Shown in pieces: positions 14,726 through 55,280 of a stretch of DNA of 64,000 nucleotides. Positions within the stretch are counted from its first letter, which is position 1. Every line of letters starts with the position of its first letter. Under the pieces are notes generated by a model, which was not told where the DNA came from, ran no database searches, and saw only the letters and a list, made by a program, of their open reading frames with translations. Source of the DNA: a virus (taxonomy: Duplodnaviria; Heunggongvirae; Uroviricota; Caudoviricetes); IMG/VR virus record IMGVR_UViG_3300017722_002988, positions 67,760-131,759 of that record. One strand, 5' to 3'. Position numbers and translations under genes: made by a program.

Positions 14726-15850
14726 GTGAAATACCAATTTCCTGTCATCAACACGATCAATGACGTCCTTCCGCACCTCGATGGTCGGAAGGAGTTTGTC
14801 GTTGCCAACCGTGGTGACCACATCATCATCAACTACGCCGTGGCCTTCGCCGACACCTTCTGTCCGGTGACAACTCTCGGCGACGCGATCCGTCGTGAAT
14901 GCCGTGGCTTGATCTTTGATGCCAAGACCGGCAAGATCATCCGCCGTCCGTACCACAAGTTCTTCAATGTGGGCGAAAAGGAAGAGACCGACCCCAAGAT
15001 CATCGATGAACTGATCGACGCCATCTCGCTCGAGAAGCTCGATGGTTCGATGATCGCTCCTTATCCGGCCGCCGACGGTACGCTCCGTTGGGGCACCAAG
15101 ATGGGTGACACCGACGTGGCCAAGATGGTTCTTCCGTTCCTAACCGCGAACTCGAACTATGTTCAGTTCGCTCAGGTCGCTGTAGAATGTGGCCTTACTC
15201 CGATCTTCGAATTTTGCTCGCGTCAGCAGCGGATCGTCGTGGATTATGAGACCGAGCGCCTCGTTCTGACTGCGGTCCGCCATATGGAATCAGGTGCTTA
15301 TGTTGGCTATGACGGCCTGTGCGCTCTGGCCGATTCGTGGAGCATCGATGTCGTTGGGACCCTGGAGTTCGACAAAAACGCTGTCGGCGTCGAGGGTGTG
15401 GTCATCCGCCTGTCGGACGGCCACATGGCTAAGATGAAGGCCGAGTCATACATGCGTATCCACAAGGCCAAGGACAAGATCACGGTTGAGAAGAATGCCG
15501 TGGACGCCATCCTGAACAACGAGATCGATGACCTTCTGCCTGAACTTGGTCAGGAAGACCGTGACCGTGTTGTGGCTCTTGATGTTGCTCTTCATCGGTT
15601 TTTGGACAGCCGCTCGAAGATGTTGGCTTTAGAGGTGGCTGAAGACGTGGAGCTCTTCAAGGATAAGAAGACTTACGCTCTTGAGGCTCAACGCCCACAA
15701 TATATCAAGGCGGCTGTTTTCAAGATGTGGGATGAGCCGGAAGGTGCTTACGAGTACCTTATGGCCCAACTCACCAAGAGCCTGGGTAAGGAAGTCAACT
15801 ACGCTGACTTCAAGCGCATGTGGGGCTTCGACTATGACTATTCTCAGTAA
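14726..15850 (+). CDS. rnlA: RNA ligase 1 (T4 gp63 / Rnl1 family)
   Basis: 374 aa, matching T4 Rnl1 length; motif-I-like EKLDGSMIAPY, EGVVIR and the C-terminal HMAKMKAESYMRIHKAKD resemble Rnl1. Confidence 0.75.
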   Translation: MKYQFPVINTINDVLPHLDGRKEFVVANRGDHIIINYAVAFADTFCPVTTLGDAIRRECRGLIFDAKTGKIIRRPYHKFFNVGEKEETDPKIIDELIDAISLEKLDGSMIAPYPAADGTLRWGTKMGDTDVAKMVLPFLTANSNYVQFAQVAVECGLTPIFEFCSRQQRIVVDYETERLVLTAVRHMESGAYVGYDGLCALADSWSIDVVGTLEFDKNAVGVEGVVIRLSDGHMAKMKAESYMRIHKAKDKITVEKNAVDAILNNEIDDLLPELGQEDRDRVVALDVALHRFLDSRSKMLALEVAEDVELFKDKKTYALEAQRPQYIKAAVFKMWDEPEGAYEYLMAQLTKSLGKEVNYADFKRMWGFDYDYSQ

Positions 15851-22937: not shown

Positions 22938-22979
22938 GTTGTACACAATTAGCAGACTGCTTATTATAGGAATGTAAGC
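22938..22979 (+). promoter_or_regulatory. phage promoter motif (TTGTACA, then CTGCTTATTATAGGAATGTAAG)
   Basis: Consensus match. Confidence 0.6.
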
Positions 22980-27298: not shown

Positions 27299-27386
27299 GG
27301 ATGCGGTTCCCTGATGGTGAGGGGCGTCGCCTGGAAAGCGCACGGTAGGCAGCAATGTCTACGGAGTTCGATTCTTCTCGCATCCG
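27299..27386 (+). tRNA. tRNA-Ser(GGA), type II
   Basis: 88 nt; CTGGAAA anticodon loop; long variable arm; acceptor GGATGCG/CGCATCC. Confidence 0.55.
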
Positions 27387-27414
27387 CCATTATTTAATGT
27401 GCATCGAATAATAG

Positions 27415-27455
27415 TTGTGTACTTAATATCCCAGCCGATTAGAATGGGAAGATAA
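27415..27455 (+). promoter_or_regulatory. phage promoter motif upstream of the tRNA block
   Basis: TTGTGTAC, then TTAGAATGGGAAGATAAATA. Confidence 0.4.
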
Positions 27456-27468
27456 ATACAGACTTAAT

Positions 27469-27545
27469 GCTCGCGTATCTCCTCTGGCTACGAACCAGTT
27501 GAAAGAGTAACTGGATACATGGAGGTTCGACTCCTCTCGTGAGCG
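27469..27545 (+). tRNA. tRNA-like with an atypical 8-10-nt anticodon loop
   Basis: Perfect acceptor GCTCGCG/CGTGAGC; T-arm GGAGGTTCGACTCCTCT; CCAGTT-GAAAGAGT-AACTGG arm. Confidence 0.4.
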
Positions 27546-27559
27546 CCAATTCAAACAAT

Positions 27560-29160: not shown

Positions 29161-29168
29161 AAGTTTAC

Positions 29169-29242
29169 GGGCGGGTCGTCTAACATTTAGGACACCGGCA
29201 TTTGAGCCGGCAATGGTAGTGAAAATCTGCCCCCGCCCACCA
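29169..29242 (+). ncRNA. degenerate tRNA-Glu-like unit with encoded CCA
   Basis: Perfect acceptor GGGCGGG/CCCGCCC; D-arm TCGTCTAACATTTAGGACACC; preceded by the same AAGTTTAC spacer. Confidence 0.45.
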
Positions 29243-29450
29243 AATCAGCGATAGAGCCGGTTCGAGTCCGGCCCTGGGGTCAGCCCCGGGACTCTACTGG
29301 AGAGATGTGGCTGCTAGGAGCTAACCTAGAGGGAGTAACTGAGACAACCCTCGAACTGTTGGACTGCTGGAAAATCCGATAACCGCCTTCTCAGGCTGTG
29401 CAGGACCAGAGAGTTAGCTTCGAAACTATTTGTTAGTTCTGATAAAATAG

Positions 29451-29490
29451 TTGTGTACATTAAATCAGAACTGCTTAGAATGAGAATATA
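29451..29490 (+). promoter_or_regulatory. phage promoter motif driving a non-coding region
   Basis: TTGTGTACAT, then CTGCTTAGAATGAGAATATAAG; no ORF follows. Confidence 0.5.
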
Positions 29491-30190
29491 AGATTGAGGC
29501 AGGGTGATGAACCCGTTAAGTCCTCCCAAGTTCGTGCTGCCGGGTTCGAAACCGCCAGTAAGAAGAAAGCGTCCTCCTGTAGGAACCCTCGAGGGAGATC
29601 GGGGTTGCGACTGTCGCAGGGAGGATGGGGTAAAAGTCCTCACGAGATCCCACCATTTCGCTCGAATGAGCAAACAAGATTGAATGAACGTGTGTGCGCA
29701 ACGGGCCACATGTAACCCTCGGTTGGGGTTCATTCATAAGATTGCCGTGTGCGGCAAAAGTCTGGGTAACCAGATGACAGGGAACGCCTCCCATAGGCCT
29801 CCCGACCTCTCCGGAGGGTAAAGCACACCGAACGGGCTACGAGAGGAGACTCTCGGCTTCATGTACCAATCATGGAGATACGTCCTAAGGATGGGAACTG
29901 AAAAGCCGGCCCCTAGCCGATGGTGGGGGGTTCTAACGGCAGGTCCGCAAGACCTAGGTTCACGCAAACCATTCTAAGACCGATGGCAAACGTTCAGAGG
30001 GTACCGCAAGTCCGAGGCCGCAACCAAGGGCAGGTATCATATCGATAGGAGACGGGCATACGGGCCGAAGGGTTCTGAGGAGACGTCATCTAGAAGATTT
30101 TTCGAGTAACTCGCAAGGTGAAAGGAATGAGTCGTGTTGCATTCTGTAGGGTAAAAGCCTTATGGAACAACTGGTCAAGCACGACTTGGT
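29491..30190 (+). ncRNA. large structured non-coding RNA candidate (about 700 nt) rich in C-GCAA-G hairpins
   Basis: No + strand ORF; recurrent CGCAAG GNRA-type hairpins (AGGTCCGCAAGACCT, CTCGCAAGGTG and others); promoter upstream. Confidence 0.4.
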
Positions 30191-30195
30191 GGGTT

Positions 30196-30267
30196 CCAAA
30201 CATAGCTCATTGGTAGAGCAATCGCATTGAACGCGATAGGCTGTGGGTTCGATCCCCACTGTTTATT
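30196..30267 (+). tRNA. tRNA with anticodon TGA (type I body); acceptor pairs only partially
   Basis: Canonical D-arm AGCTCATTGGTAGAGCA, arm ATCGC-ATTGAAC-GCGAT and T-arm GTGGGTTCGATCCCCAC. Confidence 0.5.
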
Positions 30268-30609
30268 TAAAAAAGCAAAGACTTGACCGAGAGTAAGTGT
30301 AAGAAGCCAAATGCCACAGCCGTAAGGTAATGTGGTCACTTGAAGCTCGCAAGGCGGACGGTGTTGATGTACGGAAGTTCGTAAGGGGTTAGCGCCCTTG
30401 AGTGGCTCGCAAGGTCAGCGGATGGAAAGATGTCGAGTAGCTTGCTCTGCATGTTGGATGGTCACCAACTCAAAAACGACTGGCTTTGATCGGATACCCT
30501 ATCATGTATATAGGTGTGGAGATCTAGGGAATATGCCGGGTCGCACTGGCAGAATAATCCTAGGAGACTGATCATTTAAGCGAGTAACTCTCATCGCTTT
30601 ACAAACGAT

Positions 30610-31167: not shown

Positions 31168-31303
31168 GGGAATCTCCTGAGATATTTATGTTCTTCTCAT
31201 CCCTAGGCGCCTTTTTTGTATGTACCTATTTAATGCTATGGCTTAAAGTGAGCCTACGGACGATCATGTCCGAATCACCAACTTCATTATGAGGATCCAT
31301 TTA

Positions 31304-32758
31304 ATGGACATTGCAACCATTCTCTTGCTCGCCGGTATCGCCCTTGGCGTTTTCGTCGCGCTTTGCCTGACGGTGTGGGTTATCACCAAACGACGGGTCG
31401 TTCCGACCAATATGACGCACATCGTGCAGCGAAAGAAGACCACCACTCTCTACGGACAAGGTCAAGTCGCCGGCAACGTTTACTACCACTGGCCAAAATG
31501 GATGCCGATCATCGGTATCGACGTTTCTGTCTTCCAAGGCTCAATCTTCGACGTGACGCTGAAAGACTATGAGGCATATGACGCAGGTCGACTGCCTTTC
31601 GTGGTTGACGTAAAGGCCTTCTTCCGAGTCGACGATGCTGATGTCGCTGCTAAGCGAGTCTCGACCTTCGAGGAGCTGAAAACCCAGCTGACCGCCGTCC
31701 TGCAAGGTTCGGTTCGTCGCATTCTGGCCACTAACGACCTCGAGACCATCATGCAAGACCGTTCCAAGCTGGGCGGCGAGTTCACTACCGAAGTGGATGA
31801 GCAGCTCAAGGAGTGGGGCGTGAAAACCGTCAAGTCTATCGAGTTCATGGATATCCGTGACTCCGGAGGCTCGAACGTCATCGACAACATCATGGCTAAA
31901 GAGAAGTCGCGTATCGACCGTGAATCTCGTGTGGCAGTTGCCGAGAACAACCGTGCTGCTGAGGAAAAGGAAATCGAGGCACGCCGTCAAGTCGAGCTTC
32001 AACGCCAAGACGCCGAACAACAAGTCGGCATTCGTACGGCTATGAAGGAACAAGTCGTGGGTCAAGCCGAGGAGCAATCCAAGCAAGAGATCTTGCTGCA
32101 GGCCAAGGTCACGACCGAACGCGACATGGACGTTAAGAAGGTGCAAGAGGTCCGTGCGGCCGACATCGCCAAGGACGTCGCCGTGGTTCGAGCCAATCAG
32201 GAAAAAGAGGTCCAGATCGTGGCCGCTAACGCTGCCAAGGAGCAGACCATCATCTCGGCTAACGCCACGAAGACGGAAACTGAGACCGTGGCTGCGGGTA
32301 ACCTGACGGCTGCCAAACTGTCCGCCGAAGGCACTCTCGCCACCGGTACGGCCGAAGCTGAGTCGCGCAAGCTGATGGAACTGGCACCCGTCCAAGCTCA
32401 GATCACGCTGGCTCAGGAGATCGGTGACAACGAAGGTTATCAGACCTACCTGCAAACCATCCGCCAGATCGAGGCCTCTCAGGCTGTCGGTATCGAACTG
32501 GCCGGCGCGATGGCCAAGGCCGACCTGAAGGTCATCGCCAACGCTGGAGACCCCCAATCGGGAGTCGCCAAGCTTGGTGACCTGTTCACCACGAGCGGAG
32601 GCACCGGGTTGACCGGAATGTTGACCGCTTTGTCTCAGACTCCTGAAGGCGCCGCTCTTGTGGAACGCGTTACCGGCAAGAAGGGCCCGACCCTGAATGC
32701 TGATGACATTGCTGAGGCAGTCATCGAAAAGGCAAGCGCCAAACGTCCTACCAAATAG
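31304..32758 (+). CDS. SPFH/band-7 (flotillin-like) membrane protein
   Basis: N-terminal transmembrane helix; SPFH core (VDVKAFFRV...LETIMQDR); long Ala/Glu/Gln-rich coiled coil; start chosen at the second ATG, which has an AGGA RBS. Confidence 0.7.
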   Translation: MDIATILLLAGIALGVFVALCLTVWVITKRRVVPTNMTHIVQRKKTTTLYGQGQVAGNVYYHWPKWMPIIGIDVSVFQGSIFDVTLKDYEAYDAGRLPFVVDVKAFFRVDDADVAAKRVSTFEELKTQLTAVLQGSVRRILATNDLETIMQDRSKLGGEFTTEVDEQLKEWGVKTVKSIEFMDIRDSGGSNVIDNIMAKEKSRIDRESRVAVAENNRAAEEKEIEARRQVELQRQDAEQQVGIRTAMKEQVVGQAEEQSKQEILLQAKVTTERDMDVKKVQEVRAADIAKDVAVVRANQEKEVQIVAANAAKEQTIISANATKTETETVAAGNLTAAKLSAEGTLATGTAEAESRKLMELAPVQAQITLAQEIGDNEGYQTYLQTIRQIEASQAVGIELAGAMAKADLKVIANAGDPQSGVAKLGDLFTTSGGTGLTGMLTALSQTPEGAALVERVTGKKGPTLNADDIAEAVIEKASAKRPTK

Positions 32759-33919: not shown

Positions 33920-34801
33920 ATGCTACTCCACACTCTAGAAAAGGACAAGTTGATCTCGCCGCCTCGTTGGCTGCCAGACAACACCGCCTATCTGACCGCC
34001 ATGGGCTCTGTTGCTTATGGCGTCAGCGGCGACATGTCCGACGTGGACATCTACGGATTCGCTATGCCTCCTAAGGATATGGTGTTCCCACATCTGGCCG
34101 GCCATATCCCTGGTTTCGGTCCTGCACCTCCGAAGTTCGAGTGCTGGGAGCAACACCACGTTCAGGATAAGAGCGGTAAGAAGGAATACGATTTCCAAGT
34201 CTTCTCCATAGTTCGGTTCTTCCACCTTCTGGTCGAGAACAACCCGAACATGACTGACTCGCTCTTCACTCCGGATCGTTGCGTTCTGCATCAGACTCGA
34301 GTGGCTCAGCTGGTCCGTGAGAACCGGAAGCTGTTCCTGCATAAGGGTGCCTACCACAAGTTCCGTGGGTACGCCTATCAGCAACTCAAGAAGGTTCAGG
34401 CAAAGACGCCTTCCAATCCGAAGCGTCAAGCTCTGGTCGATGCCTATGGCTACGACACCAAGTTCGCCTACCACATCGTTCGCCTAGCGCTCGAGTGCGA
34501 GGAGATCTTGACTCAGGGTAATCTGACTCTGGACGCGAACGTGGCGGTTCTGAAGGCTGTCCGTGAAGGACAGTGGACTTTGGAGCGGCTTGAGCAGTGG
34601 TTCGAAGGTAAGGAACTGCAACTCGAGCAGGCCAAGATGGACTCTAAGCTTCCAGAAGGTCCGAACTATGACGTGATCAAAGTGCTGCTCTTGCAGTGCC
34701 TGGAACAACACTACGGCGATCTGTCCAAGGCCGTTGCCAAGGATAACGGTGGCCAAAATGTCATCAACGAGGTCCAGGCTGTTCTGGATAGATATAGGTA
34801 G
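33920..34801 (+). CDS. Pol-beta-superfamily nucleotidyltransferase
   Basis: GSVAYGVSGDMSDVDIYG is a GS...D(x)D nucleotidyltransferase motif. Confidence 0.6.
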   Translation: MLLHTLEKDKLISPPRWLPDNTAYLTAMGSVAYGVSGDMSDVDIYGFAMPPKDMVFPHLAGHIPGFGPAPPKFECWEQHHVQDKSGKKEYDFQVFSIVRFFHLLVENNPNMTDSLFTPDRCVLHQTRVAQLVRENRKLFLHKGAYHKFRGYAYQQLKKVQAKTPSNPKRQALVDAYGYDTKFAYHIVRLALECEEILTQGNLTLDANVAVLKAVREGQWTLERLEQWFEGKELQLEQAKMDSKLPEGPNYDVIKVLLLQCLEQHYGDLSKAVAKDNGGQNVINEVQAVLDRYR

Positions 34802-37240: not shown

Positions 37241-37864
37241 ATGTTGTACACCATCTATCGCGTGACTCATCTAGAATCCGGGAAGTGCTACATTGGAAAA
37301 CATCAGACTAGGGACCCTAATGATGGATACATGGGTTCCGGTCAACTTATAAGACGTGCCGTCAAGAAGCATGGATTGAGCGCCTTCAAGAAAGAGGTTC
37401 TTCATGTCTTCGAAACGGAGTCCGAGATGAACGCTAAGGAGGCCGAAATGGTCACCGAGGAGTTTTGTGCTAGAGACGACACGTATAACGTGTGCCCAGG
37501 AGGGCAAGGTGGTTGGGGCTATGTGAATCGTACAATTTTAAGTCCAGCTGAGAGATATAAGAGAAGCTCAAAAGGCGGTAAAGCTGCTTTTGAAAAGTTT
37601 CCTGATTCTTTCAAGAAAGCGTGTATCGCCGGCGGAAAGTCCACCGGAGCTAAGAACGGAAGCAAAAATCAAGCATCAACACTTACTGAATCTGCGAGAC
37701 TAAAGCGAAAAGCGACCATGAAAGCCAATAGGCATATGTGTGGAGCTAAGAATAGTCAGTTTGGAACTTGCTGGATTACAGACGGGGTCTCTTCTAAAAA
37801 GATCCAAAAATCAGAAATTGAAAACCATCCTGGCTGGGAAAGAGGCCGGGTTATTAGAGGATGA
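37241..37864 (+). CDS. GIY-YIG homing endonuclease (Seg-like)
   Basis: IYRVTHLESGKCYIGKH...YMGSG GIY-YIG motif. Confidence 0.8.
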   Translation: MLYTIYRVTHLESGKCYIGKHQTRDPNDGYMGSGQLIRRAVKKHGLSAFKKEVLHVFETESEMNAKEAEMVTEEFCARDDTYNVCPGGQGGWGYVNRTILSPAERYKRSSKGGKAAFEKFPDSFKKACIAGGKSTGAKNGSKNQASTLTESARLKRKATMKANRHMCGAKNSQFGTCWITDGVSSKKIQKSEIENHPGWERGRVIRG

Positions 37865-41853: not shown

Positions 41854-41925
41854 GCACCTATGGCCTAATGGTTAAGGCAGGGGTCTCTAAAACCTTGAAT
41901 CCGGGTTCGAGCCCCGGTAGGTGCA
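41854..41925 (+). tRNA. tRNA with anticodon CTA (amber-reading, suppressor-type)
   Basis: Perfect acceptor GCACCTA/TAGGTGC; D-arm GCCTAATGGTTAAGGC; arm GGGGT-CTCTAAA-ACCTT; T-arm CCGGGTTCGAGCCCCGG; CCA. Confidence 0.6.
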
Positions 41926-42181
41926 CCAAGTTTCAGTTTTCCCCTCAAGAGGGGAGATGGAGACCACAAAGGAGAGTGCTATCATGGACTAATCTGACTC
42001 TGTAGAGATAGAATGATTTTTGATAGATAAAGTTTAATTGGTAAGAACACCGTCCTCGAGACGAAAAGGAAAAAGATATGCATTCGTAGAATCGCTGTCA
42101 ACATGACCCTCCGTGATGTAAAGATCACATTACACTAAGACCACTTATGGTAACACCATCTTTACATTACGGAGACGTCAA

Positions 42182-42945: not shown

Positions 42946-43202
42946 TGAAGAAGCGTCAATACCAATCCCCCTTCGAGGTTGTGGTGCGGCGGCCAGGCAA
43001 CGATGACATCGCCCTGGCCGCCGCGTGGCGGTTCAACTCTGATGAAACCATCCGGCGTGAAATCGCCAAAGAGCTGGCGGACATTAGTCTTCTGCAGGAT
43101 TGGAGGCCTATCAACCACAATCTTCTAAACGCTAAGAAGGTTCGCGTCCATAAGATGCGGCGAGTGCAGGCCATCAGATCGGCCGAAATCATTTCAAAAT
43201 AG
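42918..43202 (+). CDS. hypothetical protein
   Basis: ORF. Confidence 0.4.
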   Translation: MHSRRSARLMKKRQYQSPFEVVVRRPGNDDIALAAAWRFNSDETIRREIAKELADISLLQDWRPINHNLLNAKKVRVHKMRRVQAIRSAEIISK

Positions 43203-43245
43203 TTGTGTACTTAAATCCCAGACTGCTTATGATGGGAAAGTAAGA
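43203..43245 (+). promoter_or_regulatory. phage promoter motif
   Basis: TTGTGTACTTAAAT, then CTGCTTATGATGGGAAAGTAAG. Confidence 0.55.
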
Positions 43246-43264
43246 GTTAAGGAGATATATAATC

Positions 43265-43396
43265 ATGTTCCTGCAGTTCACGCAAGACGGCCGTTGGTAC
43301 CTTCGCAATGAGGTTGGCCAGATTGTCTCGAAGCTGTTCCTCTGCTATGAGGATCTGATCGACCATCTGGAAGGTCGAGTTCTGCAAGAAGTGTAA
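43265..43396 (+). CDS. hypothetical small protein (43 aa, not listed in the ORF track)
   Basis: AAGGAG RBS followed by ATG after the promoter. Confidence 0.35.
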   Translation: MFLQFTQDGRWYLRNEVGQIVSKLFLCYEDLIDHLEGRVLQEV

Positions 43397-43399
43397 GTC

Positions 43400-44215
43400 T
43401 GCACTCTGTTCTGGAGTGTGCAACATAATAGCCGAGTGGCGAGGCACCCCGCAACGGGGACGTTGGTTCAGTTCAGGATCGCTACCTGACAGCAGAAGGG
43501 TCGCACCCAAACGCTGATGAATAGCTAGGTTCGAATCCTAGATCCAGAACTGAATGCAGATAGAGCCTCGGCTCTGGTAGGTGCAATGTTGATTGAACCG
43601 GTGCGCAAGCAGCGGCCCTAGACTGGGGAGTCTGGGAGGGTGTCCTCAAGCAGAGGGAGTGCCTGGTCAAATCCCCCTTTGCGCCTTCCTGAACCGAAGT
43701 ATCAGAATTGGTAAGAGTAGTGAGTAAGGCCGGATAAAGCCCGGTGAGGAACACCAGAAACCCATTAGGGAGACGGCCTCAAGCTCTTGCCAACTAAACA
43801 GGTGAAGTCGCGAGGGACGCGGGATCGGAATGCTAGCCGCCCGAGCTTCGAGGCTTCACCTACCTAACGTAGAGAGCAAGCAAAGCTGAAGGTCGGAGAA
43901 AGTCCGATGTGGAGAGTCCATCTCGACGGAGATGGCGGACACCACGAAGCTCTCTACCATTCTATGTGACTGAGACGAAGCTATTTCCCCCTGTGCTATA
44001 CGCCGGCAATGCGAATGGGGGCGGTTCGAAACCTTATCCGGCGTTGCTGTCCTCAGTCACTACATTTTTGGGCGCCTAGTGTGAACTGGCCTAACACGCC
44101 GATAGGATCGTGCCGATCGTAAGCGCTTACGATCCAAGCAAACGAGGACTGTACACCCTCGGCGATACCGTTGGAAATCCTGGTTCGATTCCGGGGGTGT
44201 CCACCATTTTTTTAT
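43400..44215 (+). ncRNA. structured non-coding region (about 800 nt) ending in a tRNA-like T-arm, acceptor and CCA plus a T-run
   Basis: No ORF; contains CTAGGTTCGAATCCTAG and CCTGGTTCGATTCCGGGGGTGTCCACCA followed by TTTTTTT; a type-II-like D-arm AGCCGAGTGGCGAGGCA; a CCCCGCAACGGGG hairpin. Confidence 0.35.
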
Positions 44216-44306
44216 ACCCCTCCCTATAGGCGGTCTGACTCGTACGGCGTTCCGGAAGACGTTGAGTCGGTGGCAGTGCAAGTCTGGCCAAGGGGTGTCA
44301 ATTTTA

Positions 44307-44347
44307 TTGTACATAATTGTGCAACTGCTTATTATGGGAATGTAAGA
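44307..44347 (+). promoter_or_regulatory. phage promoter motif
   Basis: TTGTACATAATTGTG, then CAACTGCTTATTATGGGAATGTAAG. Confidence 0.6.
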
Positions 44348-44358
44348 AGGAATTCGAC

Positions 44359-44634
44359 ATGACCCAATATGCAGCTCCTCATAGTGCTATGGAAGCTCGT
44401 TTCAACCAAGCTTCGCTTTTCGATGAGGTCGATGACTCGGTTGAACTGTACTTTAAGGGCAAGGAAGTTGCCCACGTTCAGATCATGCGCGGCGCCGATT
44501 ACGGCGGCCGGACGCAGTATGCCGCTAGCATCTGGCTGACTGAAACCACTATGTGGATGGGCGTTCATCGCCTGACCTATAAAGAAGCGGCGAGCGATGC
44601 ACTGATTAAGTTGATCGGTCTCGGTCGTTACTAA
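44359..44634 (+). CDS. hypothetical protein
   Basis: ATG after the promoter (MTQYAAPHS). Confidence 0.5.
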   Translation: MTQYAAPHSAMEARFNQASLFDEVDDSVELYFKGKEVAHVQIMRGADYGGRTQYAASIWLTETTMWMGVHRLTYKEAASDALIKLIGLGRY

Positions 44635-44650
44635 TAAATAACCTTATCAT

Positions 44651-44721
44651 GCCCCTGGCGATGGAGTCGCGCGGATCCTTTACACGGAACCGGTCATTCA
44701 GTTCAATCCTGAATAGGGGTA
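44651..44721 (+). tRNA. tRNA-Val(TAC)
   Basis: TTTACAC loop; T-arm TTCAGTTCAATCCTGAA; CCA. Confidence 0.55.
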
Positions 44722-44729
44722 CCAATCAT

Positions 44730-44813
44730 GGAAGGTACCGGCAAGGTGTCAAACTGGACTTGAAATCCAGGGGCACGTGATGAGCGTGCGGGTTTCGATT
44801 ACTCTACCTTCCT
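44730..44813 (+). tRNA. tRNA-Ser(TGA), type II
   Basis: Perfect acceptor GGAAGGT/ACCTTCC; arm CTGGA-CTTGAAA-TCCAG; variable-arm hairpin GCACG...CGTGC. Confidence 0.55.
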
Positions 44814-44822
44814 CCACATTTT

Positions 44823-47383: not shown

Positions 47384-47468
47384 GGACGAGTTGGACAATT
47401 GGTTGGTCCGCGGGACTCTTAATCCCGTTCGCGAAAGCGGCTTGTGGGTTCGAACCCCACCTCGTTCA
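47384..47468 (+). tRNA. type-II-shaped tRNA with Lys anticodon CTT
   Basis: Acceptor GGACGAG/CTCGTTC; D-arm GGACAATTGGTTGGTCC; perfect arm CGGGA-CTCTTAA-TCCCG; 16-nt variable arm with a GAAA tetraloop. Confidence 0.5.
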
Positions 47469-47472
47469 CCAT

Positions 47473-47542
47473 CCAGCCGTAGTGTAGGTTTGCACGGCAC
47501 CCATTTGGGGGTGTTAGACTAGGTTCAACTCCTAGCGGCCGG
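47473..47542 (+). tRNA. tRNA-like with a 6-nt anticodon loop
   Basis: Acceptor CCAGCCG/CGGCCGG; CACCC-ATTTGG-GGGTG; T-arm CTAGGTTCAACTCCTAG; CCA. Confidence 0.35.
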
Positions 47543-47741
47543 ACCAAGACCCGTCCTAAGGATTCTGTGGGACGTTAAATCACTAGGAATCGGGCTTTCT
47601 CTCCTTTGCCTTAAGAAAGGAGACTGGAATCAGCCTAGAAGAGCTGGTCGAAGTCCCGTAATGTGGCACCGCCTCCGTCCGGGCGACCCTCGCAAAGGGT
47701 TAAGAGATCGGCATGGTAACCGAAATCAGGCTTCCAATTTA

Positions 47742-47825
47742 GGACGCGTCACCTCAGCAGCGAGAGGCCGGGCCTTTTAAGCCCACGGAGAAATCCCATC
47801 GGGGGTGCGAGTCCCTCCGCGTTCA
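47742..47825 (+). tRNA. type-II-shaped tRNA with Lys anticodon TTT
   Basis: Acceptor GGACGCG/CGCGTTC; CTTTTAA loop; variable arm GGAGAAATCC (GAAA tetraloop); T-arm GGGGG-TGCGAGT-CCCTC. Confidence 0.45.
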
Positions 47826-47969
47826 CCAAATTTGATGCGGACCACCTCGGACGTGGTTGCCAAGTCTGGCCAGACGGTAGAAGCCCTCGGCCGAGGGCGG
47901 ACACTTATAAAGTGATTTGGGTAGGTGGTTCGAATCCGCCCACTTTGATGGCAACGCATCAACTCATTC

Positions 47970-50384: not shown

Positions 50385-50422
50385 GGTGTACTTAATTACC
50401 AATCGTTATAGTATGAGAATAT
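50385..50422 (+). promoter_or_regulatory. phage promoter motif
   Basis: GTGTACTTAATTACC, then TATAGTATGAGAATATGAC. Confidence 0.5.
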
Positions 50423-51479
50423 GACAATGATCAAATTTCCTTCCATCGAGCAGCTGCGGACGGTCGTAAAGAACGTCCAGCACCAGTCTCGATTTGCCGG
50501 TGTCGATGACACCGGGGAGCCCATCTTTGACAGCACTCGGCCCATCCCGACCCTTCGGTTTGTTGGCACGGTGAAGCTACATGGCACAAACGCCGGTATC
50601 GTTCTGGATCGTACCGGAACTGACTTCATCTACCAGTCCCGTGAGCGTGTTCTGACTCTTGAAGCTGACAACGCTGGTTTCATGGCCCATATGCAGGCTA
50701 ATCAGGACAGCGTCGATACGCTGTTCGCAACTGTCATGCTGCAGATTGAAGATCTCGACTCAGTCAAGTTCATCTGCATCTACGGCGAATGGTGTGGCGG
50801 AAACATTCAAAAAGGGGTCGGCATCTCCGGTCTTCCCAAGATGTTTGTGGTGTTCGGTATCAAGGTCATCTACGAGACTGACGATGACGGCTCCGAAGGT
50901 GTGTGGATTCCGGTTCAAAACATCCAATACGAAGACAAGGATGCTGGCATCTACAATGTCCATCAGTTCGGTTCTTGGACGATCGACATCGACTTCAACC
51001 ATCCCCAACTGTCTCAGCCCAAGCTCATCGAGCTGACCGAGATGGTTGAGGCTGAGTGCCCTGCCGGCAAGTTCTTCGGAAACACTGGTATCGGCGAGGG
51101 CATCGTCTGGCACTGTGAAGAGCCTGGCTTTACCTCTAGCCGCCTGTGGTTCAAGGTGAAGGGCGAGAAGCACTCTGTCTCCAAGGTCAAGACGCTGGCT
51201 CCGGTCGATGTTGAGGCCTACAAGAAGCAGCAGGACTTCATCGACTCTGTCGTGACCGAAGCTCGGCTGGAACAAGGCATTCAGAATCTCATCAACGAAC
51301 AGCAGAAGCCGTTCGAGATGGCGTCCATGGGTGACTTCATTCGTTGGGTCTTCAATGACATCGTCAAGGAAGAGACTGACACAATCGAGGCCAACGGCTT
51401 TGACTCTAAGAAGCTCGGTGGTCCTATTGCCAATAAGGCACGGCCCTGGTTCATTCAGCGGCTGAACAGCGAAGGTTAA
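50421..51479 (+). CDS. rnlB: RNA ligase 2 (T4 Rnl2 family)
   Basis: Motif I KLHGTN (T4 Rnl2 has KIHGTN); IYGEWCGGNIQKGVGI resembles VFGEFAGPGIQKNVDY; FVVFGI resembles FYVFDI; 352 aa. Confidence 0.75.
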   Translation: MTMIKFPSIEQLRTVVKNVQHQSRFAGVDDTGEPIFDSTRPIPTLRFVGTVKLHGTNAGIVLDRTGTDFIYQSRERVLTLEADNAGFMAHMQANQDSVDTLFATVMLQIEDLDSVKFICIYGEWCGGNIQKGVGISGLPKMFVVFGIKVIYETDDDGSEGVWIPVQNIQYEDKDAGIYNVHQFGSWTIDIDFNHPQLSQPKLIELTEMVEAECPAGKFFGNTGIGEGIVWHCEEPGFTSSRLWFKVKGEKHSVSKVKTLAPVDVEAYKKQQDFIDSVVTEARLEQGIQNLINEQQKPFEMASMGDFIRWVFNDIVKEETDTIEANGFDSKKLGGPIANKARPWFIQRLNSEG

Positions 51480-52724: not shown

Positions 52725-55280
52725 ATGACAGAACCCTATTTTTACACAGCAGTAGATCAGGCCAAGAATGGTGACCTTCTCGTTAGAGGTTATCAGAATG
52801 GCAAGCGCTTCATGCGCAAAGTTCAATACCGGCCACATCTCTTCGTTCCCACCAAAGGCGAGTCTAAGTACCGCACTCTTGATGGGAAGCCAGTCAAGCG
52901 GATGGACTTTGAGTCCATCAAGGAAGCCAAGACTTTCATCTATGACTATAAGGAAGTTCAGAACTTCGAGATATTCGGCCAAGACAAGTTTGCCTACTCG
53001 TACATCAATGATGAGTTTTACGGCGAGATCAACTTTGACCCTCAGCTAATCTCCGTGGTCGGTCTCGACATTGAGACCAAGACCGTGTCCGATGATGGCA
53101 AGAAGGGTTTCCCAGACATCGCCAAGGCTTCTCACCCGATCACGGCTATCACCATGAAGAAGTTCGGTGGCCCGACCTATATGTTCGGTCTGAAGGATTA
53201 TCGGCCGAAGGATAAGACTGTCACGTATTTCAAATGTGTGGACGAAGCATCCCTGCTGGCTGCCTTCATTGAACTGTGGGATGGTGAGGAGATGACTCCT
53301 GACATTCTCACCGGCTGGAACATCGAGTTCTTCGACATTCCCTATCTGGTCAACCGGATCACTAAGATCTTGGGTCCGACCATGGCCAAAATGCTGAGCC
53401 CGTGGCGTATCCTTGAAGAATATGAGGTTCTGGCTCGTGGCCGTACGCAAATGGCATTCCGCCCTGTCGGTGTGTCTTGTATGGACTACCTTCCCCTCTA
53501 CAAGAAGTTCAGCTTTAAGAACCAGGAGTCCTTTACCCTCGAGTACATCTCACAGGTGGAACTCAAGGAAGGCAAGACTGATACGTCAAACTATAAAGGT
53601 CTGGATGACCTGTACGAAAGAAACCCGACTCTCTACTATGACTACAACCTTCGAGATGTCCTTCTCATCGAACGACTGGAAGCCAAGCTCGGATTCATTG
53701 CGATGGTCGAGGCCTTCGCCTATGATGCCAAGGTGAACTACAACGACACTTTGGCAACCGTGAAGCCGTGGGACGTCATCATCTCGAACTTCCTTCTCGG
53801 CCGTAACATCGTGGTCCCGCAGTTCCGTCCGAAGCACCAAGAGAAGACGATCGTCGGCGGCTATGTCAAAGAACCCGTGCTTGGTATGTCCAAATGGGTC
53901 GTGTCTTTCGACTTGAATTCCCTGTATCCGTCTCTCATCATGGCTTACAACATCGGCCCTGACACCTTCATCGAGCAACTCGAAGAGGAAGATGATCTAG
54001 AGATGACCAATGCTAAGGTCGTCGAGATCATGAACGGTAAGCTGAACCAAAAGTATCAAGACGCACTTAGAGAAGACAACGTCTGCATCACAGCCAACAT
54101 GGCTCTGTATTCCAAGAAGAAGATCGGCTTTATGGCCGAACTCATGCAGCAGAAGTACGATCAGCGTAAGATCTATCAGGCTAAGCTCAAGGAAGCCAAG
54201 AAGGAATATGCCAAGACGAAGGATCCGGCTCAGGCTATTCTCATCAGTCGGTATCATGCGCTTCAGTTGTCCAAGAAGATCCAGATCAACGCCTTCTATG
54301 GTTCGATCGCCAACAAATATTGCCGTTGGTTCTCCCTGATCAACGCTGAGGCCATTACCACGACCGGCCAGCTGACCATCCAGTGGGTTCAGAAGGACAT
54401 CAACAAGTACCTGAACAAGGTGCTCGAGACTGAGGGTCTCGACTTCGTCATTGCTTCTGATACTGACTCCGCTTACATCACACTTGACAAGTTCGTTGAG
54501 AAGTTCTGTCAGAGTATGGATGACGGAGCTATCACTGACATGTTGGATAAGGTCTGCAAGACCAAGCTCCAAGACGTGATCAACAAGTCGTTCGAGCAAC
54601 AAGGCATCTATACTAACGCCTTTGACGCCACCAAGCTAGTCATGAAGCGTGAGTCCATTGCCTCCAAAGGTATCTGGGTTGCCAAGAAGCGCTACATCCT
54701 TTACGTCTGGGATAATGAGGGCATCCGTTATGAAGAGCCTGAGATCAAGATCACTGGTCTCGAGGTTGTGAAGTCCTCAACCCCGGGCGTATGCAAGAAG
54801 GCTATGAAGGAATGCTTTAAGCTGATCTTGACCAGGCCAGAGGATGAGCTCCACAGTTACATCGATGACTTCTATTCTCGGTTCATGGAACTACCATTCG
54901 AAGAAGTTGCTTCGCCACGTGGTATCTCTGACATGGACAAGTGGGTAGATCCTGCCACTATCTTCAAGAGTGGAACGCCGATGCATGTGAAGGGTGCCAT
55001 CATGTGGAACCATGCAATCTCTAAGAAAGGTCTTGATGATCGGCTGCCGACTCTTTATAACGGCGACAAGATCAAATATTCCTATCTGAAGAAACCCAAT
55101 CCCCTTAACGTAAACGTAATTTCTACCCCTGGTAATCTGCCATCAGAGCTGGGTCTGGACTCATACATAGATCGGGATATACAATTCCAAAAGACATTCA
55201 TCGATCCAATGAAATTGGTCACAGATGTCATCGGATGGACGCCCCAAAAAACGTATACACTCGATTCATTTTTTAGCTAG
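52725..55280 (+). CDS. 43: DNA polymerase gp43 (family B)
   Basis: Exonuclease motif DIETK; SLYPSLI; motif B KIQINAFYGS; motif C IASDTDSAYI; 851 aa. Confidence 0.95.
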   Translation: MTEPYFYTAVDQAKNGDLLVRGYQNGKRFMRKVQYRPHLFVPTKGESKYRTLDGKPVKRMDFESIKEAKTFIYDYKEVQNFEIFGQDKFAYSYINDEFYGEINFDPQLISVVGLDIETKTVSDDGKKGFPDIAKASHPITAITMKKFGGPTYMFGLKDYRPKDKTVTYFKCVDEASLLAAFIELWDGEEMTPDILTGWNIEFFDIPYLVNRITKILGPTMAKMLSPWRILEEYEVLARGRTQMAFRPVGVSCMDYLPLYKKFSFKNQESFTLEYISQVELKEGKTDTSNYKGLDDLYERNPTLYYDYNLRDVLLIERLEAKLGFIAMVEAFAYDAKVNYNDTLATVKPWDVIISNFLLGRNIVVPQFRPKHQEKTIVGGYVKEPVLGMSKWVVSFDLNSLYPSLIMAYNIGPDTFIEQLEEEDDLEMTNAKVVEIMNGKLNQKYQDALREDNVCITANMALYSKKKIGFMAELMQQKYDQRKIYQAKLKEAKKEYAKTKDPAQAILISRYHALQLSKKIQINAFYGSIANKYCRWFSLINAEAITTTGQLTIQWVQKDINKYLNKVLETEGLDFVIASDTDSAYITLDKFVEKFCQSMDDGAITDMLDKVCKTKLQDVINKSFEQQGIYTNAFDATKLVMKRESIASKGIWVAKKRYILYVWDNEGIRYEEPEIKITGLEVVKSSTPGVCKKAMKECFKLILTRPEDELHSYIDDFYSRFMELPFEEVASPRGISDMDKWVDPATIFKSGTPMHVKGAIMWNHAISKKGLDDRLPTLYNGDKIKYSYLKKPNPLNVNVISTPGNLPSELGLDSYIDRDIQFQKTFIDPMKLVTDVIGWTPQKTYTLDSFFS

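Follow-up and report, generated by a model that had tools for sequence, protein, structure and literature searches.

Two stable RNAs of phage T4, species 1 (rnaC, 139 nt) and species 2 (rnaD, 119 nt), have genes that adjoin segB where the T4 tRNA cluster ends, and their function is not known. Here we analyzed a comparable locus in a 64,000-nucleotide stretch of DNA from a tailed phage (Caudoviricetes), positions 67,760 to 131,759 of IMG/VR virus record IMGVR_UViG_3300017722_002988, which is referred to as the window and whose own numbering is used throughout. On the plus strand of the window, positions 43398–44296 are predicted to encode a string of eight independently folding, stem-closed RNA domains (M1, M2, M3, M4, B1, H, B2 and D3), most of which appear to behave as exchangeable cassettes. 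One of them, B2, is of the tRNA-Tyr type and carries an extra arm. The locus is a six-helix Tyr-type tRNA cassette within a shuffled array of structured, partly tRNA-derived RNA domains, and as such it holds more interest than a pseudo-tRNA without being as exotic as a phage transfer-messenger RNA (tmRNA).

Among described systems, rnaC and rnaD appear to be the closest analogues of this array. The likeness lies in small structured RNAs of 120–140 nt whose genes border a T4-type tRNA cluster and neighbour a GIY-YIG homing endonuclease gene, and it is a resemblance of kind and context only; the array has eight domains and T4 has two. In T4 (NC_000866, 1909–2047, minus strand), rnaC has a perfect T arm (CCGGG-UUCGAAU-CCCGG) and an acceptor-like strand at its 3′ end, and, with introns allowed, ARAGORN recognizes within it a fold like that of tRNA-Leu(UAA). 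B2 differs from rnaC and rnaD in having a full cloverleaf, a Tyr anticodon loop and CCA. No sequence homology was found between B2 and either T4 RNA, the covariance model of B2 matching only the T arm of rnaC locally (11.8 bits).

Two further systems invite comparison. The large GOLLD and ROOL RNAs typically lie near phage tRNA islands (PMC12286853). They share with the array a large, highly structured locus in a phage tRNA island that is free of open reading frames (ORFs), variable domains, and an embedded or attached tRNA; in contrast, the array gives no evidence of long-range architecture and is found in one phage lineage only. No match to RF02032 or RF03087 was obtained within 43150–44400 at E ≤ 10, whereas a true GOLLD RNA at 30129–30597 of the same window scores 173.5 bits. 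As for tmRNA (SsrA), it has in common with B2 the T arm, the acceptor stem, A73, CCA and an enlarged body in place of the normal anticodon arm, but B2 possesses a real D stem and an anticodon hairpin, has no conserved tag ORF, and does not conserve G3·U70.

Fold and autonomy of B2

The original prediction had singled out the 3′ end of the region as a tRNA-like terminus, and each of its parts is present: the T arm CCTGG-TTCGATT-CCGGG (44179–44195), the acceptor strand GGTGTCC (44196–44202), A73 (44203), an encoded CCA (44204–44206) and a run of seven T residues (44207–44213). The 5′ acceptor partner had been sought about 250 nt upstream, in the motif GGACACC. This motif, which lies at 43937–43943 and not at about 43947 as had been given, is the only perfect Watson–Crick complement of the 3′ strand, but it is not the sole possible partner, since GGGCGCC at 44070–44076 pairs with GGTGTCC at 7/7 positions, two of them G·U. 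With this local strand, the 137 nt of B2 (44070–44206, plus strand) are predicted to form six helices: the acceptor stem; a D stem of GUGU/ACAC (44079–44082 with 44094–44097) enclosing a D loop with GG; an extra stem-loop (44115–44134, an 8-bp hairpin with a GCGC loop) within a 43–45-nt insertion between the D and anticodon stems; an anticodon stem (44143–44147 with 44157–44161) whose loop (44149–44155) holds GUA at 44151–44153, followed by C37; a long variable arm (44163–44173); and the T arm. When constrained to this tRNA shape, the fold is isoenergetic with the free minimum free energy (MFE) structure (−48.9 vs. −49.3 kcal/mol). With introns allowed and at its default threshold, ARAGORN made exactly one call in the region, at 44070–44206, and used the local acceptor strand, the D arm GUGU/ACAC and the T arm. 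Without the intron option there was no ARAGORN call, and RF00005 did not match B2 even at E ≤ 10; with 137 nt and a sixth helix, B2 falls outside the cloverleaf of four arms and ~73–93 nt that standard models detect. The earlier idea that the 3′ end belongs to a tRNA-like gene thus holds, in an expanded form that escapes standard finders.

Comparative evidence came from ~25 related contigs (handles beginning with L below), gathered by exact look-ups of neighbouring proteins, homologs of a 43-aa ORF adjoining the array, and one metagenome scan, with nucleotide identities from 99% down to ~75%. The only distant protein match of that scan, L059, was unrelated. Three diverged B2 alleles (the window type, the L098 type and L096) and one truncated copy (L105) could be compared, and a covariance model was built from those copies that aligned easily; L096 fitted it with 90 bits and L105 with 61 bits. 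Under the six-helix fold, 96.8% of cells are paired and 9 of the 32 pairs are changed on both sides, a value that none of 500 shuffles reached, and slid registers gave only 0–1 covarying pairs. The acceptor stem GGGCGCC/GGTGTCC becomes GGGGCCC/GGGCCCC in L096, the D stem changes from GUGU/ACAC to GUAG/CUAC (double changes in 3/4 pairs), the T stem, which is 100% paired, changes from CCUGG/CCGGG to CCAGG/CCUGG, and an A-U pair of the anticodon stem is G-C in L098. The T loops read TTCGATT, TTCGAGT, TTCGAAT and TTCAAAT across the alleles, and the variable arm differs in each allele. The extra arm shows two double changes of its own and is therefore maintained by selection rather than being junk.

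The presence and absence of domains among relatives led to the same partner. B2 occurs without B1, the domain that contains GGACACC, in L008, L058, L096, L098 and L102–L108, and with only a partial M4 in L098 and L100, and L004–L007 carry B1 without B2. Because the B1 and B2 blocks occur without each other, the proposed long-range pairing is excluded; in L096 the 3′ strand covaries with its local 5′ strand. We are highly confident of the predicted fold and of the autonomy of B2. What had been observed was largely right, and how it had been interpreted was largely wrong.

Probable tyrosine identity of B2

Next to the B2 copies themselves, the B2 model scores best against class II tRNAs from other phages, namely Leu(UAA) and Tyr(GUA). 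The anticodon loop reads C/U32-U33-G-U-A-C37-A38, with the anticodon GUA, and the hairpin C-GAGGA-CUGUACA-CCCUC-G is nearly invariant in all B2 alleles. When the extra arm was removed in silico, ARAGORN at default settings called tRNA-Tyr(GUA) in the window, L096 and L098 alleles alike. The bacterial tyrosyl-tRNA synthetase (TyrRS) recognizes G1-C72, A73, the long variable arm and the anticodon, as in E. coli tRNA-Tyr, and all four features are present in the same three alleles. The tRNAs of the window include a CUA suppressor and serve 19 amino acids, and a canonical tRNA is missing for Tyr only; an ARAGORN ‘Tyr(ata)’ at 47874–47947 was rejected as a canonical tRNA-Tyr, having no CCA, a poor acceptor stem and no Rfam support. 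As the window holds no canonical tRNA-Tyr, B2 would fill this gap, and we are moderately confident in assigning it, from its sequence features, to the bacterial class II tRNA-Tyr(GUA) type.

Compared with class II tRNA-Tyr(GUA), including those of phages T5 and T6, B2 has the same 7-bp acceptor stem with G1-C72, A73, CCA, GG in the D loop, the C/U-U-G-U-A anticodon loop, a long variable arm, and a canonical T arm and T loop, and like the T5 and T6 genes it sits in a phage tRNA island beside Seg-type endonuclease genes. It differs from them in the 43–45-nt extra stem-loop, in C37 and A31·C39, and in being missed by standard finders and by RF00005.

Other identities were considered and dropped. 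A ‘tRNA-Val(GAC)’ with a 49-nt anticodon-loop intron, as proposed by ARAGORN, would have the loop UAGACCC, which lacks U33, and its stem GCCGA/UCGGC breaks in L096 and L105. The anticodon-loop-intron solutions are also mutually inconsistent, being Val in the window, Cys in L096 and Leu in L098. Similarly, an Ala identity with tmRNA-like charging via G3·U70 was considered, a phage tRNA-Ala being the most similar tRNA of the window, and was abandoned because L096 has G3-C70.

The other domains of the array

The region is structured, as had been proposed, with an MFE well below that of shuffled sequences (z = −4.3 on the plus strand and −2.4 on the minus strand) and compensatory changes in six of the eight domains. 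It is also without a real ORF, in agreement with the original prediction: the program-listed ORFs gain stops or frameshifts, or are missing, in relatives. A 91-aa ORF has no relatives among viral contigs. Substitutions in M1 and in M2–M4 show no codon periodicity, unlike those in the 43-codon ORF upstream, and these domains are therefore regarded as non-coding. Rfam gave nothing at gathering thresholds and only three chance-level matches at E ≤ 10, and no paralogs of the modules were detected within the window. By analogy with rnaC and rnaD of T4, the domains other than B2 are probably stable tRNA-derived or structured RNAs.

M1 (43398–43560; 160 nt) is a four-way junction of tRNA-like parts. 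The RNAalifold consensus of eight sequences, which was also computed with five, contains 51 pairs, 10 of which show compensatory double changes. A closing helix of 16–17 bp (43398–43415 with 43543–43560) encloses a D-arm-like hairpin that contains GG (43431–43445), an extra hairpin with GCAA (43447–43459), a 5-bp hairpin with the 7-nt loop A/U-U-CGC-U-A/U, a branched variable-like arm, and a T-arm-like hairpin (43525–43541) with TTCGAAT as the T loop of the window and TGCAAAT as that of other alleles. The D-arm-like AGCCGAGTGGCGAGGCA (43430–43446), the GCAA hairpin CCCCGCAACGGGG and the T-arm-like CTAGGTTCGAATCCTAG, which had been noticed as separate upstream pieces, were all found again and all belong to this domain. 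Their order is that of B2 (closing helix, D-arm-like hairpin, extra hairpin, 5-bp hairpin, variable-like arm, T-arm-like hairpin), and the anticodon-like loops are invariant across alleles. M1 has no CCA. When its tRNA-like parts were stitched together, ARAGORN called a tRNA, an artificial construct that indicates only that the building parts are tRNA-like. M1 also resembles the bacterial Y RNA YrlA in joining a long closing helix with D-arm-like and T-arm-like hairpins. The element order of YrlA is permuted, whereas M1 keeps the normal tRNA order, D then T. A YrlA/Ro identity was rejected, as there was no Rfam YrlA match and no Ro/TROVE gene among the proteins scanned.

M2 (43565–43700) is a branched domain closed by the helix GCCUCGG/CCGAGGU, with 47 predicted pairs, four of them compensatory. 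It is the best-conserved module at the deepest split, with 88% identity in L096 compared with 75% for the adjacent coding gene, and its covariance model found nothing outside the lineage. M3 (43706–43795), closed by AAUUGGUAAG/CUUGCCAACU, is a dispensable cassette that is deleted whole in L007, L101, L105 and L106. In L096 (3182–3290), an alignment read by hand revealed a chimera of M3 and M4, in which the interior of M4 is enclosed by the 5′ closing strand of M3 (GGUAAGAG) paired with an altered 3′ strand (CUCUUACC), and the chimera is still stem-closed. M4 itself (43800–43861) is a long irregular hairpin with the conserved apex CGGGAUCGG-AAUGCUAG-CCGCCCG, and, B2 apart, no other module is shared with the minimal L098 lineage. 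From hand-read alignments, the apex changes in a compensatory way from CGGG/CCCG to CAGG/CCUG in L096 and L098, and the basal helix differs in sequence between lineages with its pairing kept.

B1 (43869–43957), closed by GUAGAGAGC/GCUCUCUAC, is present only in the window, L004–L007, L009 and L010. The folds of B1 and M3 come from MFE prediction together with whole-domain insertions and deletions (indels). H (43966–44060), closed by GUGACUGAG/CUCAGUCAC and followed by ACAUUUUU, has 28 predicted pairs, of which four are compensatory, and holds a spurious tmRNA ‘tag’ frame. It is absent from L004–L007, L098, L101 and L105. At the position of H, L106 (806–973) carries an unrelated cassette of ~170 nt, which suggests that the pool of RNA cassettes is larger than the window shows. 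D3 (44216–44296), followed by a U-rich tract at 44301–44308, exists as two alleles ~25% apart; two of its 22 pairs are compensatory, its closing helix changing from ACCCC/GGGGU to GCCAC/GUGGC, and several G·U pairs of the inner helix become A-U.

Mosaic distribution and possible cassette mobility

The phages differ mostly by indels of whole domains, which assort independently of one another. All eight domains are present in the window. L002 lacks B1 and B2, L004–L006 lack H and B2, and L007 lacks M3 in addition; L008, L058 and L102–L108 lack B1 and, as a group, have H and B2, with L105 and L106 departing at H, where the unrelated cassette of L106 is found. L101 retains only M1, M2, M4 and D3. 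At the extreme, L098–L100 have nothing between the two flanking ORFs except a partial M4 and B2. Since many close relatives do without B2, it must be dispensable.

The B2 sequence is 100% identical in the window, L008, L058, L102 and L106, and 99.3% identical in L107. In L008, L058, L102 and L106, identity is 87–97% for an adjacent 85-aa gene, 83–99% for M1 and 73–97% for D3; in the more diverged of all these backgrounds the values are ~87%, 83–87% and 73–80%, respectively, and across the five sampled backgrounds the flanks differ by 12–27%. An identical B2 in diverged backgrounds fits a recent lateral spread of the cassette. In addition, M2, M4, H and B2 have diverged less than the coding genes next to them. 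A deletion derivative was observed in L105 (1240–1400), where the first 9 nt of B1 (CGTAGAGAG) have been joined through microhomology (GAGAG) to the extra arm of a B2 of the L096 type, which leaves a 5′-truncated tRNA-like gene.

A possible source of such mobility is encoded nearby. SegE-like GIY-YIG genes lie ~1.2 kb downstream of the array in L004–L006 and L008, and at 37241–37864 in the window. According to a 2026 study (PMC13096335), the SegB endonuclease of T-even phages cleaves inside tRNA genes at RAWTSGAAC. Read on the other strand, this site is GTTCSAWTY, which codes for the T loop; M1, H and B2 contain sequences of this kind, and M2 has a weaker one. Cleavage of T-loop-coding DNA by homing endonucleases of the GIY-YIG Seg type may drive the gain and loss of cassettes and the spread of B2.

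Searches beyond the lineage returned no homolog, either by blastn of GenBank phages or with six DNA patterns in viral contigs; seven hits of one of these patterns in viral contigs were rejected as a coding gene read on the other strand. A genome collection yielded 36 chance hits to a GC-rich 19-mer and no homolog, and none was found by nhmmer and two covariance models in 45 distant phage loci anchored on an RNaseH-like gene.

The proposed transcription unit

Upstream of the array, a promoter-like motif (ACTGCTTATGATGGGAAAGTAAGA, 43222–43245, plus strand) consists of a MotA-box-like element, TGCTTA, then 11 nt and TAAGA. The corresponding 24-nt motif (ACTGCTTATNATGGGAANGTAAGA) has five copies on the plus strand of the window, at 22956, 29470, 39640, 43222 and 44324, compared with 0.00 expected. 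These copies precede the tRNA island, the GOLLD RNA and the array unit, and an exact copy of the 43222 motif at 44324–44347, right after D3, would begin the next unit. The motif resembles the MotA-dependent middle promoters of T4. Judged by its sequence, the copy at 43222 is probably the start of the array transcription unit.

The 43-codon ORF (43265–43396, plus strand) lies between this motif and M1, directly upstream of the array, and is probably co-transcribed with it. Its substitutions are biased toward third positions (4/4 vs. L002, 6/9 vs. L058 and 18/29 vs. L096), and its homologs, at 83–95% identity, always adjoin the array. No family in Pfam or PHROG matches the product. H, B2 and D3 are each followed by a T-run. 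The one behind B2, a U7 tract in the transcript (44207–44213), stands directly after the encoded CCA, and a T-run occupies this place in every allele; it may serve in termination or 3′ processing. D3 would be a possible terminator of the unit. Co-transcription of the array followed by processing is plausible.

Alternative explanations

Taken together, the data are best explained by one transcription unit within a tRNA island, comprising a promoter, the 43-codon ORF and an eight-domain array in which B2 is a self-contained Tyr-type tRNA with an extra arm, and we assign this explanation a probability of roughly 65%. Several points weigh against it. B2 has C37 in place of a purine (U33 and the 7-nt loop are present), positions 31 and 39 form an A·C mismatch, and there is an extra C-G layer beneath the anticodon stem. 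An extra arm at 25/26 might be incompatible with the ribosome, and no tRNA in which a conserved extra arm separates the D stem from the anticodon stem was found described in the searchable literature, which is absence of evidence only. The covariation comes from just three independent B2 alleles plus one truncated copy, counted in an alignment fitted to the model; alternative pairings exist in the centre of B2 (GCCGA/UCGGC, and CCGAU with the 3′ strand of the variable arm); and L096 encodes ACUA instead of ACCA. Many close relatives (L002, L004–L007 and L101) have no B2. For the array, B1 and M3 are without covariation support, the evidence for M4 was read by hand from an alignment, and the high identity of M2–M4, H and B2 could reflect strong selection on one large RNA rather than cassette spread. 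The proposed roles of the promoter, the terminators and the homing endonucleases are deduced from motif resemblance.

In a different view of the locus, 43398–44296 is one large multi-domain non-coding RNA, a new ‘ornate’ RNA of the GOLLD/ROOL kind, with peripheral domains that vary between strains and with the B2 tRNA covalently attached near its 3′ end as in the GOLLD linker. It would account for the single promoter-like motif upstream, the next one coming only after D3, for the joint presence of M1, M2 and M4 in nearly all relatives, and for a conservation of M2–M4 that exceeds that of the flanking coding DNA; the indels take out whole stem-closed domains, as expected of peripheral elements of large RNAs, and the same island encodes a GOLLD RNA with an embedded tRNA. 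Nevertheless, no long-range helix joins the domains, and an MFE pairing of the 3′ end with 43434–43450 was rejected because it conflicts with the covarying M1 helix and with the absence of B2 in relatives. H and B2 each have their own T-run, the L098 lineage retains only part of M4 and B2, and there is neither an Rfam match at E ≤ 10 nor a homolog outside one phage lineage. We therefore consider one large RNA improbable, if still worth keeping in mind. A graveyard of decaying tRNA pseudogenes and recombination scars without function would fit the degenerate tRNA-like genes nearby (44651–44724 and 44730–44816), the clearly truncated B2 of L105 and the dispensability of modules in individual strains, but compensatory substitutions keep the helices in six of the eight domains, M2, M4, H and B2 outdo adjacent coding genes in conservation, and the anticodon-like loops are invariant, which makes decay very unlikely.

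Two other explanations concern B2 alone. The 43–45-nt insertion might be an intron that is excised, the halves being rejoined, perhaps by the RNA ligases of the phage, into a 92-nt class II tRNA-Tyr. The Tyr(GUA) calls obtained in all three alleles after in silico removal speak for it, as do the Rnl1-like and Rnl2-like RNA ligases and the RlaP nucleotidyltransferase that the phage encodes and the structural conservation of the insertion, which a processing signal would also show. However, the insertion lies at 25/26 and not at the canonical 37/38, no bulge-helix-bulge-like pairing of its flanks was seen by inspection, no insert-free allele was found, and C37 and A31·C39 would stay non-canonical after splicing. 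We also know of no protein-spliced tRNA intron in bacteria or their phages, a further count against excision. A group I intron was rejected: RF00028 gave no match at E ≤ 10, the insertion is far shorter than the ~150 nt or more of an intron with a P1–P9 core in the anticodon loop, and it lies 5′ of the anticodon stem. Excision of the insertion is accordingly an unlikely account of B2.

Least credible is the model first offered for the locus, that is, a tmRNA-like terminus of a larger RNA, or a tRNA split by an intron of ~250 nt, with GGACACC at 43937–43943 as the 5′ strand; the comparative data already contradict it. Apart from the perfect complementarity of GGACACC, its support is an ARAGORN call of a tmRNA at 43937–44206 with the tag AGNANGGGSKPYPALLSSVTTFLGA*, which is obtained at 80% of the default threshold, whereas there is no call at the default. 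The Rfam scan with tmRNA and group I intron models that had been suggested as a check was run and returned nothing at E ≤ 10. That no tag frame of the tmRNA kind had been recognized in the sequence agrees with the comparison of relatives, in which the sub-threshold frame is not conserved, being frameshifted in L096 and without its stop in L058. The long-range pairing would give A3-U70 and not the G3·U70 that a tmRNA requires, while the local pairing has G3·U70 in the window and G3-C70 in L096, where the 3′ strand has changed together with the local 5′ strand. Finally, such an RNA would need both B1 and H, but B1 is missing from most B2-bearing relatives and present in relatives without B2, and L098 has B2 without H, B1, M1–M3 or D3.

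Possible function and implications

In the most likely mechanism, the array would be transcribed as one precursor, from which B2 might be freed in the same way as the tRNAs nearby, with RNase P cutting at G44070 and the 3′ end being trimmed back to the encoded CCA. The host TyrRS may then recognize B2, so that it could be charged and serve either as a phage supply of tRNA-Tyr or as a decoy. The Septu and retron-Eco7 PtuAB nucleases cleave the variable arm of tRNA-Tyr (PMC13096335); phage tRNA-Tyr counteracts Septu and retron-Eco7, and the T5 tRNA-Tyr resists cleavage via its distinctive variable loop (PMC13096335 and its predecessor). The extra arm, if retained in the mature RNA, and the fast-changing variable arm could likewise make B2 a poor substrate for tRNA-Tyr nucleases such as these, which would give it an anti-defence role. 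Our confidence in any specific function of B2 is low.

A bolder reading goes further, and we offer it as a speculation with a modest chance of being correct: B2 would be a functional tRNA-Tyr that keeps its extra arm in the mature RNA as a shield or decoy against tRNA-Tyr nucleases, and would found a new family of hyper-expanded, six-helix tRNA-derived RNAs in which M1 is a non-acceptor relative and the cassettes are shuffled by homing endonucleases, and/or M1–M4 would represent a new class of large phage RNA alongside GOLLD.

The tRNA fold is among the most conserved in biology, and a sixth helix, supported by covariation, in what is apparently the only tRNA-Tyr of a phage would be a new tRNA architecture, a new tRNA intron of a bacterial virus, or a tRNA mimic; the first of these would apply if B2 functions with the extra arm in its mature form. 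Because tRNA-Tyr is a known target of Septu and retron-Eco7 and phage tRNA-Tyr a known counter-defence (PMC13096335), the link to defence is testable. Genes of this kind escape standard tRNA annotation, and the tRNA repertoires of phages may therefore be larger than counted. More broadly, tRNA islands may swap structured RNA domains as cassettes, which would extend the old and unexplained case of rnaC and rnaD in T4.

The tRNA island

The window comes from a distant T4-like phage, apparently of freshwater. Its gp43-type DNA polymerase (52725–55280) shares ~44% identity with the polymerases of Sinorhizobium phage phiM12 and of cyanomyophages, and the related contigs all come from metagenome assemblies, the JGI samples among them looking like freshwater lake communities. 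The tRNA island that contains the array is very large (~23.7–48 kb). ARAGORN found 38 tRNAs in it and Rfam added a few more, all on the plus strand, for ~41 in the window in total. CCA is encoded in nearly all tRNA genes of the phage, as it is in B2.

Genes for RNA repair and handling are distributed around the island, namely those for an Rnl1-like ligase (14726–15850), the RlaP nucleotidyltransferase (33920–34801), the SegE-like GIY-YIG endonuclease mentioned above and an Rnl2-like ligase (50421–51479). The GOLLD RNA (Rfam RF02032) holds a tRNA-Ser(UGA) at 30196–30267 inside its linker; the promoter-like motif at 29470 is near it, and a gene for an SPFH/Band 7 protein (31289–32758) lies just downstream.

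Several unusual tRNA genes were also observed. An amber-suppressor tRNA (anticodon CUA), which ARAGORN labels ‘Pyl’, lies at 41854–41928 and is kept in all relatives (L001, L004, L058 and L096–L108), and the phage may read TAG as sense. Close behind the array, the tRNA-like gene at 44651–44724 is not called by ARAGORN in the window and has the 3′ end ACCA, and its L008 homolog is called tRNA-Val(UAC); the class II-like gene at 44730–44816, also without a call in the window, combines the loop CUUGAAA (UGA anticodon) with a degenerate T arm and has UCCA at its 3′ end. Two tRNAs with Lys anticodons (CUU and UUU), at 47384–47471 and 47742–47828, are unusually long (87–88 nt) and have class II-like long variable arms, and the second of them is detected only by Rfam or relaxed ARAGORN. 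For the tRNA-like genes at 47473–47546 and 29167–29245, both of which end in CCA, ARAGORN reports a 2-nt ‘anticodon’ (tt), that is, an odd-sized anticodon loop. Lastly, intron-tolerant ARAGORN calls a ‘tRNA-Ala(ggc)’ with a 113-nt intron at 27338–27548, which overlaps tRNA-Ser(GGA) at 27299–27389 and may be either another expanded tRNA-like element or an artefact.

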